64,000 nt of DNA, taken from NCBI RefSeq assembly GCF_003790525.1, contig NZ_CP033635.1. One strand, written 5' to 3'. Below the pieces are notes generated by a model. That model did not search any database and was not told the origin of the DNA. It saw only the letters and a program-made list of their open reading frames with translations. Numbering within the stretch: the stretch's first letter is position 1; the number at the start of each line of letters is the position of its first letter. Shown here piece after piece: positions 3,183-35,166 of the stretch. The position numbers were made by a program, and so were the translations under genes. This DNA comes from Escherichia coli (GTDB lineage Bacteria > Pseudomonadota > Gammaproteobacteria > Enterobacterales > Enterobacteriaceae).

Positions 3183-3884
3183 TCAGATAAATGCAAACGC
3201 ATCGCCAAACAGGCGATCTTCCCGCGCATTACGCTCGCTGCAAAACAGGTCACGGGCAATTTTCGCCATCTCAAAACGTCCGGCAATATAGATATCATGC
3301 TCTGCCAGCGTACCATGATCCTGCAATACCGCCGTTAACACGGTGCCAGTACGCCCACGCCAGCCCGCTTCCGGTTGTTCAACCACCGGCACCACTTGCA
3401 GACCAGGATGCTTCAACGAAAGCGCCTCAAGCTCGGAGAGATCATAAAGATGCTGCTCTTCACGCCCGCCCCAGTAAATGGTGATATCACGGTTTGGGTT
3501 ACGCGCCAGCGCCGTCAGCAAAATCGAGCGCGCATAAGAGAACCCGGTGCCACCCGCAATCAAAATCATCGGACGTTCTTCATCATCGCGCAGCCATGCC
3601 TCACCGTGCGGAATATCGACCACGATTTGATGATCTTTAAGAATGCGGTCCATGACTGCTTTCGCGTAAAGGTTGATTTCAGAAGCGCCAATATGCAGCT
3701 CGATGAACCCTTTTTCATCTGGCGTCGAAGCCATTGAGAACGGACGTTTGTCACGCTCATCCATCACTACCATCAAATACTGACCAGCACGAAAAGAAAA
3801 GGCCGCGTCTGGTACGATTCGGACACGGTATACGGTATCCGTGATAGCTTCTACCGAGGTCACTTTACAGCTTAAGGTTGTCAT
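3183..3884 (-). CDS. fre: NAD(P)H-flavin reductase Fre
   Basis: Translation [21 protein letters not shown]... matches Fre; the six-frame ORF extends 11 codons further upstream, start chosen at MTTLSC. Confidence 0.9.
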
Positions 3885-29140: not shown

Positions 29141-31402
29141 TCATCCCCGACGCAAATTCTGCGCCGCCTGCACCATGTTCGCCAGTGCCGCGCGGGTTTC
29201 TGGCCAGCCGCGCGTTTTCAGGCCACAGTCCGGGTTGACCCACAGACGCTCTGCCGGAATGCGTTTTGCCGCTTTCTTCAGCAAGGCTTCAATCCATTCC
29301 ACGCTCGGTACGTTTGGCGAGTGAATGTCATAGACGCCAGGACCGATTTCATTTGGATAATCAAACTCTTCGAACGACTCCAGCAACTCCATGTCGGAAC
29401 GCGAGGTTTCGATGGTGATGACGTCTGCGTCCAGCGCCGCAATCGAATCCATGATGTCGTTGAACTCGCAGTAACACATGTGAGTGTGGATTTGTGTGTC
29501 ATCTTTCGCCACAGCGGCGTTGATACGGAAAGCCTCCACGCCCCACTGGAGATAGGCATCCCAGTCGCTGCGACGCAGTGGTAAACCTTCGCGCAATGCC
29601 GGTTCGTCAATCTGAATGATGCCAATTCCAGCGGCTTCCAGGTCCGCGACTTCATCACGCAGCGCCAGCGCAATTTGTTTGGCGATGGTTTCACGGCTGA
29701 CATCTTCACGCGGGAACGACCAGCAGAGAATAGTCACCGGGCCGGTCAACATCCCTTTCACCGGTTTATCAGTCAGGGATTGCGCATATTTTGCCCACTC
29801 CACGGTAATCGGTGCCGGGCGGCTAACGTCACCAATAACAATCGGTGGCTTCACGCAGCGGGAACCGTAGCTCTGTACCCAACCGTTTTGCGTAAAGACA
29901 AAGCCATCCAGATGCTCGCCAAAGTATTCCACCATGTCATTACGCTCGGCCTCGCCATGTACCAGCACATCCAGTCCCAAACGTTCCTGCTCAACAATGG
30001 CCTGCTTGATATGTTCCGCAATGCCTGTGCGGTAGTTGTTGGCGTCGAGATTACCCTTTTTGAAATCCAGACGCAGGGTACGAATCTCCGTGGTTTGCGG
30101 GAAAGAACCAATCGTGGTGGTCGGCCATGCTGGGAGTTTAAAACGCGCACGCTGGGCTTCAGCACGCACTTCATAGACATTCGCACGCTGACTGTCCTGA
30201 GCGGTGATCGCCGCCAGACGCTTTTCTACTGCCGGATTATGTACACGAGTAGAGTGACGACGCGCCTGAATCGGAGCGCTCCACGCTGCCAGAGCTGCCG
30301 TATCACCACTGTTCAACGCATCGCGCAGCAATGCCAGTTCATGACATTTTTGCAGGGCGAAGGCAAACCAGCTTTTCACTTCTGCATCAAGACGTGTTTC
30401 CACACTCAGGTCAATGGGACTGTGCAGCAGTGAGCAGGAAGATGCCACCCACAAATCACGTTTGCCGACAATGTCCTTAATTTGCGCATATTTCTCGGTA
30501 AGATCGGCGCGCCAGACGTTACGACCATTGATAAGACCCGCAGACAGCAGCCAGTCAGAAGGCAGACGCTTGTGCAGTTCAGCAACGTCATCTTTACCAT
30601 GTACAAGATCGACATGCAGACCCTGAACAGGCAGCGCAGTAATCGTGTCGAGATTTGGTGTTACGCCTTCAAAATAGGTGGTCAGCAGCAGTTTCACCTG
30701 TCCCTGGAGCGCGTCGTAAGCGGGTTTGTATGCGTCCAGCCACGCCTGCGGCAGTTCCAGTACCAGCGCGGGTTCATCAATCTGTACCCACTCGATGCCG
30801 CGTTTCGCCAGTTCTGCCAGCACTTGCTGATAAACCGGCAGAATGTCGTTCAGCAGGCTCAGGCGATCAAACTGTTCACCTTTCACTTTACCCAGCCACA
30901 GGTAGGTAACTGGCCCCAGCAGCACAGGTTTCACCTTGTGGCCCAGCGCCAGCGCCTCGTCCACTTCCTCCAGCAGCTGCGTCCAGGTCAGTTTGAACTG
31001 TTGGCCTTTAACGAACTCCGGCACCATGTAGTGATAGTTGGTGTTAAACCATTTGGTCATTTCCGCTGCCGCCGCAGGTTCGCCAGTCGGTGCACGTCCA
31101 CGACCAATACGGAACAGGGTGTCGATATCTACCGAACCATCGTTGTTCTGGTGACGCGCCGGAACATTACCCAGCAGCAGACTGGTGGTCAGTACATGAT
31201 CGTACCAGGCAAAATCGCCCACCGGCAGCAGGTCGATACCCGCTTGCTTTTGTTGCTCCCAGTGACGAGCACGTAATTCACGCCCTACCGCCAGCAGTTC
31301 TTCACGCGTGGAGTTCCCCGCCCAATAACTCTCTTGCGCTTTTTTCAGCTCGCGACGCAGGCCAACGCGAGGGAAACCGAGGGTGTGATTAAGAATTGTC
31401 AT
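29141..31402 (-). CDS. metE: Cobalamin-independent methionine synthase MetE
   Basis: 753 aa, [29 protein letters not shown]... Confidence 0.95.
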
Positions 31403-31519
31403 TATATGCCCCTTATGGAATTTTTAGTATTTAGCCGTCCAGATGTTTACACATCCATAATTGGCGGTTACTGTATATTCCTCAAGCGCAAATTATTCAT
31501 GCCGAAGTGAAGGACTTTC
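31403..31519. promoter_or_regulatory. metE/metR divergent promoter region with candidate MetJ/MetR sites (CCAGATGTTTACACATCC)
   Basis: Met-box-like octamer pair seen in sequence; known regulatory arrangement in E. coli. Confidence 0.4.
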
Positions 31520-32473
31520 ATGATCGAAGTAAAACACCTGAAAACGCTACAAGCGTTGCGGAACTGCGGCTCACTCGCAGCCGCTGCGGCGACGTTGCAT
31601 CAAACGCAATCCGCCCTGTCTCACCAGTTTAGCGATCTGGAACAACGCCTTGGCTTCCGGCTATTTGTGCGTAAAAGCCAGCCGCTTCGCTTTACACCGC
31701 AGGGAGAAATCCTGTTGCAACTGGCAAATCAGGTGCTGCCGCAAATTAGCCAGGCACTGCAAGCCTGCAATGAACCGCAGCAGACGCGCCTGCGCATTGC
31801 CATAGAGTGCCATAGCTGTATTCAGTGGCTGACGCCCGCATTAGAAAATTTCCATAAGAACTGGCCGCAGGTGGAGATGGATTTTAAATCGGGCGTAACG
31901 TTTGATCCGCAGCCTGCGTTGCAACAGGGCGAGCTGGATCTGGTGATGACGTCCGATATTCTGCCGCGCAGTGGCCTGCATTATTCGCCGATGTTCGACT
32001 ATGAAGTGCGTCTGGTGTTAGCACCTGACCATCCACTGGCGGCAAAAACGCGAATTACACCGGAAGATCTCGCCAGCGAGACGCTGTTGATTTATCCGGT
32101 GCAGCGTAGCCGACTGGATGTCTGGCGGCATTTTCTTCAGCCAGCAGGCGTCAGCCCGTCACTGAAAAGCGTCGATAACACCTTATTGTTGATTCAGATG
32201 GTTGCCGCACGGATGGGTATTGCCGCACTACCGCATTGGGTAGTGGAGAGTTTTGAACGCCAGGGTCTGGTGGTCACCAAAACCCTGGGCGAAGGCTTGT
32301 GGAGCCGACTGTACGCCGCCGTGCGCGATGGCGAGCAGCGTCAGCCGATTACAGAAGCGTTTATTCGTTCAGCGCGCAATCACGCCTGCGATCATCTGCC
32401 GTTTGTGAAGAGCGCGGAGCGACCCACTTACGATGCACCCACAGTGAGGCCAGGATCACCAGCGCGCCTGTAA
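31520..32473 (+). CDS. metR: LysR-type regulator MetR
   Basis: 317 aa, [45 protein letters not shown]... Confidence 0.95.
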
Positions 32474-33260
32474 TAAACGTTGGCCAGTGCGGCTGTTGGT
32501 GCCAGATAGCCAGGTTTACCAGCAGCCCTGCCGGAACGTGCATATTATTCATAATGCCCAGCGTTCCGGCGTCCACCTGCGTCGCGCCGTAGTTCCACAT
32601 AAAGTAGCCAATCCCGGAAGCCACCACGCCAAGAAACACCAGAATGCCCCATTGCAACGTGGTTTGCGGCATTTTCTGCGCATTTCCTAGCAAGAACCAT
32701 GCAATCACTGCCACCAGGAACGCGCCAAGATAGAACCACGCAAAGGCGTTATGCTGCGGCATCGGGCGAGTTTCCATCAGACGTTTGTAACCCACCATGC
32801 CGATGGCAAAAGTGATATTGGAGAGTTGCACCAGCAATAAGCCAGTCCAGAAATGGTCGGTGACCTGATCATAGCGAATAATCCCGGCACCAATCACCGC
32901 CAGCAAGGCGCTAAAAGCATAGCCCCAGCGCAGACGGCGCTTACTCATGATGTCATAAATCAGCGTGATGTAGAGCGGCGTCAGTACGGTGAACAGCAAC
33001 AGTTCGGAGACCGTCAGGTAGAGATAGGCGCGGAAACTCAGCATATACATCACACCGAGCTGCATCGCGCCCACCAGCATATACAGGCCGACCGTTTTCA
33101 GGCTATTGCCACGGGTACGCAGAAACGGCAGAAAAACGAGTGCCGCCAGGCCAACGCGCACCAGCACCGCAAAATAGCTATCGACGTGCCCCGCAAGGTA
33201 CTCGCCATAAAAGCTAAAGGAGAAGGCCCACAGAATCGTGGTGATGATAAGTAGCGCCAC
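32361..33260 (-). CDS. yigM: DMT/EamA-family inner-membrane transporter YigM (reported biotin transporter)
   Basis: 299 aa, 10 TM helices; 3' end overlaps the metR 3' end convergently by 113 bp. Confidence 0.85.
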
Positions 33261-33335
33261 AATGGAAAACTCTTTGATTAACGAGTATCCATTGTAGCGA
33301 AGTATCAGGTTGACAACTGACCAAATAAAGAACGA

Positions 33336-34136
33336 TTACGATAAATAGAGCTTACGCAGATAATGCGGCACTGCGTCCTCGGCGTTAGTACCAATCACTT
33401 CCAGTTCCGGATGCAGATCTTTCAGACGCTGGTGCGCACTGCCCATAATGCAGCCTTTCCCCGCCATCGACAGCATTTCGGCGTCGTTCATGCCATCGCC
33501 AAAGGCAATACAATCTTGCAGGCTGTAGCCCAGTTTCTTCGCCACCGCTTCCAGCGCATGGCCTTTCGACACGCCGCCCGCCATCACTTCCAGACAGGTT
33601 AAGGTAGAGAAACTAACGTTGACGCGATCGCCCCAGCGAGCATTAATCGCCTGCTCCAGCGGCAGCAGTTGTTCATGGGAATCGCAGGTGAAGAACACTT
33701 TGCTGACGCCTTCCGGCTCCAGTAATCCCGGCTCATACAGCGCATATTTGAATACCGCTTCTTTAAAAAAGCGCATCTCTTCCGGGCGATGACGATTCAT
33801 AAACCATTCGTCGTCGCGATAAACGTTAGTAATGATGTCCGGATTGTCGTTGACTACGCCAAACAGATCGCTGGCAATATCGCGATCCAGGTTATGAGCA
33901 AAAATCAGATTGCCATCCAGATCGTGAACGCGCGCGCCATTGGAGGTAATCATGTAAGACTTAATCTCCAGATTATCGCGAATTTGCCCCACATCAACGT
34001 GGTGACGACCGGTCGCAAATACAAAGTTGATGCCGCGCGCGGTGAGCAGCTTCAGAGTTTCTTTGGCGTAAGGGGATAACGTATGGTCGGGAGAAAGTAA
34101 CGTGCCATCTAAATCAGACGCAACAACCTGGTACAT
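33336..34136 (-). CDS. yigL: HAD-family sugar/pyridoxal-phosphate phosphatase YigL
   Basis: MYQVVASDLDGTLLSPDHTL... Cof-type HAD motifs; start chosen at MYQVV rather than the extended six-frame ORF. Confidence 0.9.
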   Translation of the reverse strand: MYQVVASDLDGTLLSPDHTLSPYAKETLKLLTARGINFVFATGRHHVDVGQIRDNLEIKSYMITSNGARVHDLDGNLIFAHNLDRDIASDLFGVVNDNPDIITNVYRDDEWFMNRHRPEEMRFFKEAVFKYALYEPGLLEPEGVSKVFFTCDSHEQLLPLEQAINARWGDRVNVSFSTLTCLEVMAGGVSKGHALEAVAKKLGYSLQDCIAFGDGMNDAEMLSMAGKGCIMGSAHQRLKDLHPELEVIGTNAEDAVPHYLRKLYLS

Positions 34137-34143
34137 AAGAAAT

Positions 34144-35166
34144 TTAAACCTCTGTAGAGCGGTTTCCGCTGGGTGAGTTATGCCTGTTGAAAAAATCAAC
34201 GATAGCGTGGAGCGCGACTGAGCGCATTGCGTCCTTTTCAAAAAGGATCTCATGGTACGCACCTTTAATTACCAACGGCCGTCCTCCTTCGACAGGATGG
34301 CCCGCAGCGGTGCGTAGTTCACAAAAACGGTCGTGCATGCGGTTATCCACCACGCGTTCCTCTTCAGCTTGTAAGAGAAGCGTTGGCGTGGCGTCATCAC
34401 CCGCACCGGCTAACACCTGTTCGCCAGCCAGAATACTTTCGCGTACCCAATGGTAGGTCGGCCCACCGACGCGAATCGTTGGGTCATCAGCATAAAAGCG
34501 TAAGTTACGTCGATATCGCTGTCTGCTGTGGGTCAGTACGTTGATAGCAAACGGCAACGCGCGCCAGCGCCCGGTGCCTATTGCATAGCCATCACGGAAA
34601 CGTGGATGCGCTTCGGCCCAGTTGAGGATCTGCCGTGCCATAAATGACGGCATACGAATCACGATCCCAAACATTGGCGCAGTTAGCGCAATGGCGTCAC
34701 ATACACCTGGATGGCGTTGCAGAAATAATGTGGAGATCGCACCGCCCATTGAATGTGCCAGTATATAGCGTTTACGCCACGGACCGGGCTGAACCTCCTG
34801 CTGCCAGAATGCCGCCAGATCATCAACATAATCATTAAAGCGATTAACATGCCCGAGATGCGGATCGGCTAACAGGCGACCGGAACGTCCCTGCCCGCGA
34901 TGGTCGATGATTAAGACATCAAACCCCAAATGGAACAGGTCATAGGCCAGTTCCGCATATTTTACGTAGCTCTCAATACGCCCCGGGCAGATGACTACCA
35001 CCCGGTCATGGTGCTGTGCGCGAAAACGGACAAAGCGCACCGGAATGTCATCCACACCAGTAAATTCTGCTTCATCACGCTGACGCCAGAAATCAGTCAG
35101 CGGTCCCATGGTAAAAGCAGCAAACGCGTTTTCTCTTGTTTCCCAGTCTTTTTGCTGCTGAAACAT
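34144..35166 (-). CDS. pldB: Lysophospholipase L2 PldB
   Basis: 340 aa alpha/beta hydrolase with GHSMGG nucleophile elbow. Confidence 0.9.
   Translation of the reverse strand: MFQQQKDWETRENAFAAFTMGPLTDFWRQRDEAEFTGVDDIPVRFVRFRAQHHDRVVVICPGRIESYVKYAELAYDLFHLGFDVLIIDHRGQGRSGRLLADPHLGHVNRFNDYVDDLAAFWQQEVQPGPWRKRYILAHSMGGAISTLFLQRHPGVCDAIALTAPMFGIVIRMPSFMARQILNWAEAHPRFRDGYAIGTGRWRALPFAINVLTHSRQRYRRNLRFYADDPTIRVGGPTYHWVRESILAGEQVLAGAGDDATPTLLLQAEEERVVDNRMHDRFCELRTAAGHPVEGGRPLVIKGAYHEILFEKDAMRSVALHAIVDFFNRHNSPSGNRSTEV

Follow-up and report, generated by a model that had tools for sequence, protein, structure and literature searches.

Conserved convergent pairs of overlapping genes were reportedly described in prokaryotes by Rogozin et al. 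in 2002. Real overlaps of more than 60 bp are possible only in the convergent orientation, and among 338 genomes 178 convergent overlaps of this size were counted, only 54 of which were possibly real, and those mostly kept in close species only (Pallejà 2008, PMC2478687); the remark in the initial annotation of the present locus that long convergent overlaps are uncommon is borne out by these counts. The tail-to-tail pair formed in Escherichia coli by metR and yigM (bioP) resembles the conserved convergent pairs of that survey in comprising real genes on opposite strands, with common 3' coding ends and ORFs that run past the end of the partner, and it is one of the few overlaps of more than 60 bp that hold up on orthologue comparison (PMC2478687). 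At 113 bp, and with a distribution that takes in several Enterobacterales families, it exceeds most of the 54 possibly real cases in both length and age (PMC2478687); a search by gene name and locus tag did not find the pair in the supplementary lists of the survey. The category iii overlaps of Pallejà 2008, in which an ORF is extended at its 3' end, would arise by the same mechanism, namely reading on to the next in-frame stop with the gain of a tail of little or no function, but such an extension is a one-genome oddity that counts as an error on account of its shorter orthologues, whereas the metR/bioP extensions are fixed across the order and one of the two stops is hard-wired by an invariant Phe-Ile pair in the partner. 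A co-directional overlap of Escherichia, Salmonella and Yersinia (PMC2478687) is likewise conserved, with a protein end encoded on common DNA, but it is shorter than 60 bp and has the potential for translational coupling, whereas the antisense arrangement of metR/bioP allows no such coupling. Excludons share with metR/bioP a convergent orientation in which transcript overlap is unavoidable if both genes are expressed (PMC12288877); classical excludons, however, overlap through long UTRs and their reciprocal regulation has been demonstrated, whereas in metR/bioP it is the coding regions that overlap and the pair is a candidate excludon. The metR/yigM overlap is already annotated and has been noted in print by Côté 2016 (PMC5120140) and ExcludonFinder 2025 (PMC12288877), and the analysis of the hand-over between the two reading frames that we present is a modest refinement and no new kind of biology.

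The window, by which we mean the whole 64,000-nt stretch of E. coli DNA that was analysed, is 100% identical to E. coli SMS-3-5. It contains metR (31520..32473, plus strand), which encodes a 317-aa LysR-type regulator of metE and metH and ends with a TAA stop at 32471-32473, and yigM (32361..33260, minus strand), which begins with GTG and encodes a 299-aa biotin transporter of the DMT/EamA family with 10 TM helices, its TAA stop lying on the complement of 32361..32363. The convergent 113-bp overlap at 32361..32473 reported in the initial annotation was confirmed from the ORF list, the raw sequence and RefSeq, which gives the same two CDS (metR and bioP, "biotin transporter") with a 113-bp overlap in both SMS-3-5 and the K-12 derivative MC1061. 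From the coordinates, first codon positions of metR lie opposite first positions of yigM throughout, metR second positions opposite yigM third positions and metR third positions opposite yigM second positions, so that a silent change in one gene always strikes the second codon position of the other. An NCBIfam equivalog match spans residues 1-317 of the 317 in MetR (741 bits), with HTH_1 at residues 5-63 and LysR_substrate at residues 86-288, and YigM matches TIGR00950 and Pfam EamA, the latter match stopping at residue 275; the Pfam domains thus end short of both C-terminal tails. These domain matches, together with the role of yigM in biotin transport and that of metR under nutrient stress, both reported earlier (Côté 2016, PMC5120140), establish the two as a convergent overlapping pair of real genes. 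An AlphaFold model of YigM, of only moderate overall quality (pLDDT 66.5), places the last TM helix at residues 259-279 and assigns a pLDDT below 50 to residues 282-299; the corresponding model of MetR, built on an 18-sequence alignment, had a pLDDT of 38 and was unusable.

The initial annotation had suggested that one of the C-terminal extensions may not be translated or may differ between strains. An overlap that existed only on paper, owing to an annotation artefact, a wrong stop or a sequencing error, would be in keeping with the misannotation of most long annotated prokaryotic overlaps, including 124 of the 178 convergent ones above 60 bp (Pallejà 2008, PMC2478687), and with the position of both tails outside the Pfam domain boundaries; convergent overlaps, however, depend on stops and not on start prediction, and here both stops are read directly from the sequence, which shows little or no variation in more than 5,400 complete E. 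coli genomes. A 173-bp segment around the overlap was present at 95% identity or more in 5,423 of 5,426 complete genomes, with both genes annotated in each row sampled from the 5,423 matches, and the central 41-mer (32405-32445) was found at 99% identity or more in 5,417 of the 5,426. A species scan with one genome per species retrieved 80 Enterobacterales loci, 78 of which carry a convergent overlap of 50-116 bp, exactly 113 bp being the commonest length (55 species); Escherichia, Salmonella, Klebsiella, Enterobacter, Yersinia, Rahnella, Hafnia, Dickeya, Pectobacterium and Brenneria are among the genera represented. The loci complete enough to stack, which form the basis of the codon and entropy tables, number 73, and in every one of them the two start codons lie exactly 1,741 nt apart, with zero indels. 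Most Enterobacteriaceae, and Yersinia too, have a MetR of 317 residues; in Rahnella, Dickeya, Pectobacterium and Brenneria it has 311-312, and across the retrieved species the range is 311-318. YigM has 299 residues in 77 of the 80 species and in all Enterobacteriaceae genera sampled. The convergent metE-metR-yigM arrangement is kept across the order, and even a distant relative with a YigM only 57% identical keeps yigM-metR-metE with a 98-bp overlap. An old 276-aa sequence of Salmonella MetR might be taken for a short form; the current Salmonella MetR has 317 residues.

This agreement in orthologue length (317 and 299 residues) is the opposite of the pattern by which Pallejà 2008 recognized misannotation, and neither reading frame offers translation an earlier stop. 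Each tail follows directly on a conserved domain and runs to the first in-frame stop, and the suggestion of an untranslated extension found no support; we consider a purely nominal overlap scarcely credible. Variation between strains was borne out for rare lineages only, with MetR of 311-318 residues among genera and YigM of 284 or 278 residues in a few cases, and both lengths are otherwise constant. Since both C termini have their full length (MetR 317 aa, YigM 299 aa) across most of the genera from Escherichia to Yersinia, these sequence comparisons confirm the overlap, at the level of the ORFs, as genuine, conserved and ancient, and neither an artefact nor a strain peculiarity. The doubt cast on the tails nevertheless has some merit, in that the terminal tails appear to be mostly without amino acid selection of their own.

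Per-codon entropies across the 73 species reveal that the frame under selection switches at 32420-32426. To the left, MetR F281-P302 displays the signature expected of metR, with quiet first and second positions and variable third positions, and in the opposing YigM codons 281-299 the second positions are hypervariable and the third frozen. The pattern is inverted starting at MetR codon 303: YigM 263-280, which contains TM10 and the HRxWV motif, carries a normal coding signature, and the second positions of MetR 303-317 are hypervariable. The same partition emerged from parsimony counts of changes per site on an NJ tree of the 73 species. Outside the overlap, second positions in both genes change about 1.0-1.5 times per site (1.05 in metR, 1.5 in yigM) and third positions about 15-16 times; in the left part of the overlap the values are 1.7 for metR second positions and 9.4 for metR third/yigM second positions, in the right part 2.9 for yigM second positions and 14.3 for yigM third/metR second positions, and at the junction about 0. 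Second positions in the tail frames therefore evolve 6 to 14 times faster than the baseline of their own gene. Mean pairwise identity follows the same course, falling in MetR from 90% (residues 1-280) and 88% (281-302) to 47% (303-317) and in YigM from 81% (1-262) and 77% (263-280) to 58% (281-299).

We accordingly divide the overlap into a metR-dominated part (32364..32419), in which MetR 282-300 is under purifying selection and YigM 281-299 is a largely passive "shadow" tail, a doubly constrained junction (32420..32426), at which MetR R301 (CGA) and P302 (CCC) lie opposite YigM V280 (GTC) and W279 (TGG), and a yigM-dominated part (32427..32470), in which YigM 264-279 (TM10) is selected and MetR 303-317 is the passive shadow. 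Only about 7 bases are frozen for both genes, and each tail is mostly an antisense shadow of the partner. R301 is encoded by the rare codon CGA in 73 of 73 overlapping species and by CGC, CGT or CGG in all five lineages that lack the overlap. The invariant P307 (CCA) of MetR lies antisense to W274 of YigM, itself invariant, and the conserved-looking motif in the YigM tail is the antisense of MetR sequence.

These patterns bear upon the proposal that both C-terminal tails are functional and that the 113 bp are truly dual coding, under purifying selection for both proteins. The striking constancy of both ORF lengths is what such a proposal would predict, as is the conserved appearance of the YigM tail within the Enterobacteriaceae, but this appearance mirrors MetR 282-300, one frame dominates on each side of the junction by codon-position pattern, tail identity is low (47% in MetR, 58% in YigM) and in the shared stretch the amino acid conservation of the two products falls short of that in the rest of each protein. 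Reduced synonymous variability in metR offers dual coding a further argument: synonymous-site entropy in metR codons 281-302 is 0.72 compared to an expected 1.15 (P<5e-5). The entropy in yigM 263-280 is 1.07 compared to 1.28 (P=0.03), and metR third positions opposite the YigM tail undergo 38% fewer changes than the baseline. This suppression is partial and not uniform, the drop in metR coming from six codons (F281, I282, A285, A299, R301 and P302) and that in yigM being driven by two. F281 is TTT in 73 of 73 species, and I282 is ATT in all 70 overlapping species compared to ATC in three of four lineages without overlap; because I282 is ATT, the terminal Glu of YigM is kept, and this last residue, Glu299, is invariant, with P282 and A296 conserved in 66 and 65 of the 73 species, respectively. 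The tails are thus not wholly free of constraint, and we would place the constrained end of YigM at about V280-P282, with a weak preference for the terminal Glu in addition. Taken with the fate of the tails in distant homologues, in natural truncations and in lineages that have lost the overlap, which is described below, the data make true dual coding of the whole stretch improbable.

The positions of the two stop codons can be understood in similar terms. The yigM stop lies at codon 300 in 73 of 73 species, and its position is fixed because it is the antisense of positions 2-3 of MetR F281 and position 1 of I282: with an invariant Phe-Ile, TTY followed by A reads TAA or TGA on the opposite strand. 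When synonymous codons were resampled with the protein of the partner held fixed, the yigM frame reached codon 300 in 84% of draws, compared to the 73 of 73 observed, and acquired a stop at codon 285 in 10.8%; the latter arises at 32405..32408, the MetR V296 codon and the first base of K/R297, where the synonymous choice GTY before the A of Lys or Arg (A..) creates a stop in yigM. The observed excess of full-length YigM may in part be phylogenetic inertia, as the species are not independent. The metR stop (32471..32473) differs between genera, falling at codon 312 in 9, 313 in 3, 318 in 54 and 319 in 7 of the 73 species, where the simulation placed it at these codons in 38%, 17%, 26% and 5% of draws. 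The length of the MetR tail therefore drifts among a few positions set by the codons of YigM, with the long form in excess. Advocates of dual coding could point to the frequency of the stop at codon 318 (54 of 73 compared to 26%), but shared ancestry could yield the same excess, from which it cannot be separated.

The YigM tail is on occasion shortened in nature by changes that leave MetR unaltered. In Pectobacterium fontis, GTC AAG at V296-K297 yields a YigM of 284 residues; a Kluyvera sp. has a YigM of the same length, and Citrobacter portucalensis also counts among the natural truncations. At least 75 draft contigs represent a rare E. coli lineage in which the base corresponding to 32425 has changed from C to T; this turns P302 from CCC to CCT, silently for metR, and converts W279 of YigM to TAG, with the result that BioP has 278 residues and the overlap is reduced to 50 bp. 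The variant is absent from all 5,426 complete E. coli genomes. In one genome of Citrobacter braakii the MetR tail is frameshifted, giving a protein of 323 residues.

Tails have also been replaced wherever the overlap was lost. The Serratia genes remain convergent with a gap of 21-33 bp, MetR having 314-316 residues at two loci (312-316 across the Serratia proteins listed) and YigM 286-287; a DUF1456 gene separates metR from yigM in Pantoea and Erwinia, and S. rubidaea has a porin gene after metR and has lost the adjacency of the two genes. Across the lineages without overlap, MetR has 308-316 residues and YigM 286-289. Their MetR proteins keep ...HLPFVRDAxRP and continue into unrelated tails of 6-14 residues (for example GATGAKALAAGV, GSLQTTSS and GAILQR), and their YigM proteins keep ...SLWVHRRWV, followed by 4-9 unrelated residues (such as APKQLG and LGRTIKSNA). 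Distant homologues of YigM lose homology after about residues 275-285 and end in unrelated short tails, and the MetR of Neisseria meningitidis (PDB 4ab5) is alignable up to residue 296. Both Serratia 3' ends, that of metR and that of yigM, align to one and the same junction segment of the overlapping relatives; the alignments are short, and they hint, suggestively at best, that the overlap was resolved in Serratia by a small duplication.

We suggest, with good but not complete confidence, that metR and yigM form a genuine and ancient tail-to-tail overlap that arose by mutual 3' read-on and that their tails are for the most part antisense mirrors of the partner gene. The functionally constrained ends of the two proteins, ...AERP302 in MetR and ...HRxWV280 in YigM, meet with near precision at the common 7-nt junction (32420-32426), and as neither ORF has a stop there, ribosomes would read on over the antisense of the partner to the first in-frame stop. 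MetR would in this way gain a 15-residue tail (303-317) that is the antisense of YigM transmembrane helix 10, and YigM a 19-residue tail (281-299) that is the antisense of MetR 282-300, with the MetR stop shifting among a few positions according to codon choice in YigM. We infer that the tails are translated, as translation ends only at a stop, and that they are close to neutral in function. The arrangement may persist because the shared stretch tolerates no indel, because few synonymous changes give rise to premature stops and because a short disordered tail probably costs the cell little. A long antisense overlap could, by this account, endure over very long periods in the absence of genuine dual coding, the constraint being partitioned at a 7-nt junction and each protein putting up with a tail that its neighbour dictates.

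Why the overlap has persisted may have another answer, compatible with mutual read-on and not exclusive of it: selection may have kept the pair as a convergent "excludon", in which transcriptional interference or RNase III cleavage of the RNA duplex brings about antagonistic expression of metR and bioP, so that biotin uptake is linked to methionine/SAM regulation. Overlap of the two mRNAs is inevitable because there is no intergenic room for a terminator, a search in and around the overlap found no intrinsic or bidirectional terminator close to either stop, and the conservation of the convergent metE-metR-yigM arrangement across the order would accord with such a role. The pair is listed as the convergent excludon bioP-metR on the basis of E. 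coli K-12 RNA-seq coverage (PMC12288877), but coverage is all that this listing draws upon. Moreover, Serratia has resolved the coding overlap, Pantoea and Erwinia have acquired an intervening gene and S. rubidaea has lost the adjacency, and the nucleotide patterns are explained by coding constraint in one frame or the other. Hairpins downstream of both stops are not conserved, and a scan of 31000-34000 against Rfam gave no match at E<=1. On balance we regard maintenance as an excludon as unlikely. A further proposal attributes the order-wide overlap to selected antisense coupling, in which metR transcription damps the biotin importer and the reverse, and interprets Glu299-TAA and the 317-aa MetR as small adaptive refinements; this we judge more doubtful still. 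Biotin synthesis consumes SAM, and were such coupling real it would tie biotin uptake to SAM supply.

Candidate signals in the RNA were considered and set aside. The sole match to a terminator consensus lies within metR and is within chance expectation. The hairpin downstream of the metR stop (folding z=-2.8) has a stem, CCGGAACG/CGTTCCGG, that falls on positions constrained by amino acid sequence, and its third-position pairs are without covariation in the 73 species; the stem of the hairpin downstream of the yigM stop (folding z=-3.2), CCAGGGT...ACCCTGG, was seen by eye to vary in other species.

The overlap has practical consequences, and whoever deletes, tags or recodes metR or bioP/yigM must reckon with the shared 113 bp. 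Deleting either gene harms its neighbour, a C-terminal fusion to either gene changes the other, and BioP may be cut short by mutations that are silent in metR, as with P302 CCC to CCT (W279*) or V296 GTC before Lys (284 residues). The standard metR knock-out also abolishes biotin uptake (Côté 2016, PMC5120140): deletion of metR phenocopies that of yigM, being synthetic lethal with bioA and sensitive to a BioA inhibitor in LB (PMC5120140). According to the primer table of that study, the metR deletion retains only the last 6 codons (PMC5120140) and therefore cuts YigM inside TM10; the yigM deletion of the same authors ends by design at about 32495 and leaves metR intact (Côté 2016, PMC5120140).

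The stop codon of yigM, at one edge of the metR/yigM overlap, lies antisense to the MetR codons F281-I282 (window 32360 to 32365). The F281 codon was TTT in all 73 overlapping species and in 5/5 nonoverlapping lineages; the antisense stop at this site is equally possible with TTC, yet TTT was the only codon found in either group. The I282 codon was ATT in 70/70 overlapping species but ATC in three of four lineages in which the overlap is resolved. Resolution of the overlap takes several forms: metR and yigM are separated by gaps of 21 to 33 bp in Serratia (loci L082 and L086), by a DUF1456 gene in Pantoea and Erwinia (L087 and L089), and in S. rubidaea (L088) a porin gene follows metR. The gap of Serratia PL17 contains a GGGCTTCC...GGAGCCC hairpin and then a T-rich run.

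The C terminus of YigM was shortened by changes that are silent in metR. A rare E. coli lineage, represented by at least 75 draft contigs, carries a C-to-T change at the equivalent of window position 32425 (loci L090 to L092; protein P0495), which leaves MetR unaltered (P302, CCC to CCT) and converts W279 of YigM to a TAG stop, giving a BioP protein of 278 aa and an overlap of 50 bp; the change was present in 0 of 5,426 complete RefSeq genomes. The YigM protein of Pectobacterium fontis (locus L077, around position 3387) is 284 aa long because the MetR V296 codon is GTC ahead of AAG; this combination leaves the MetR residue unchanged but produces a TGA codon in the yigM frame, and the resulting stop occupies the position predicted to be the likeliest by the simulation in which synonymous metR codons were resampled. 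A Kluyvera sp. YigM (P0481), compared at the protein level, is also 284 aa long.

The 323-aa MetR of Citrobacter braakii (P0006), found in one genome, is frameshifted past R297 into the +1 frame; the shift may reflect an error in sequencing, or it may be genuine, in which case the YigM tail would be changed too. Four E. coli variants originating from MAGs and metagenomes (P0073, P0078, P0064, and P0001) have in-frame internal deletions of 24 to 28 aa or a 33-aa duplication within the LysR substrate domain, and their C termini are intact. In strain Z135-6 (BLAST hit H30), metR was matched in two pieces, annotated "hypothetical protein" and "LysR family transcriptional regulator," and the gene probably contains an insertion.

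In many strains, K-12 types and O157:H7 among them, the BLAST alignment began only at query base 31, which suggests a polymorphic segment at approximately 31400 to 31430, directly upstream of the metE start, where the metE-metR intergenic region adjoins metE. On the other side of yigM, the longest yigL open reading frame (33336 to 34262, minus strand; 308 aa, GTG start) would run into the end of pldB; the RefSeq YigL protein is 266 aa (33336 to 34136, minus strand).
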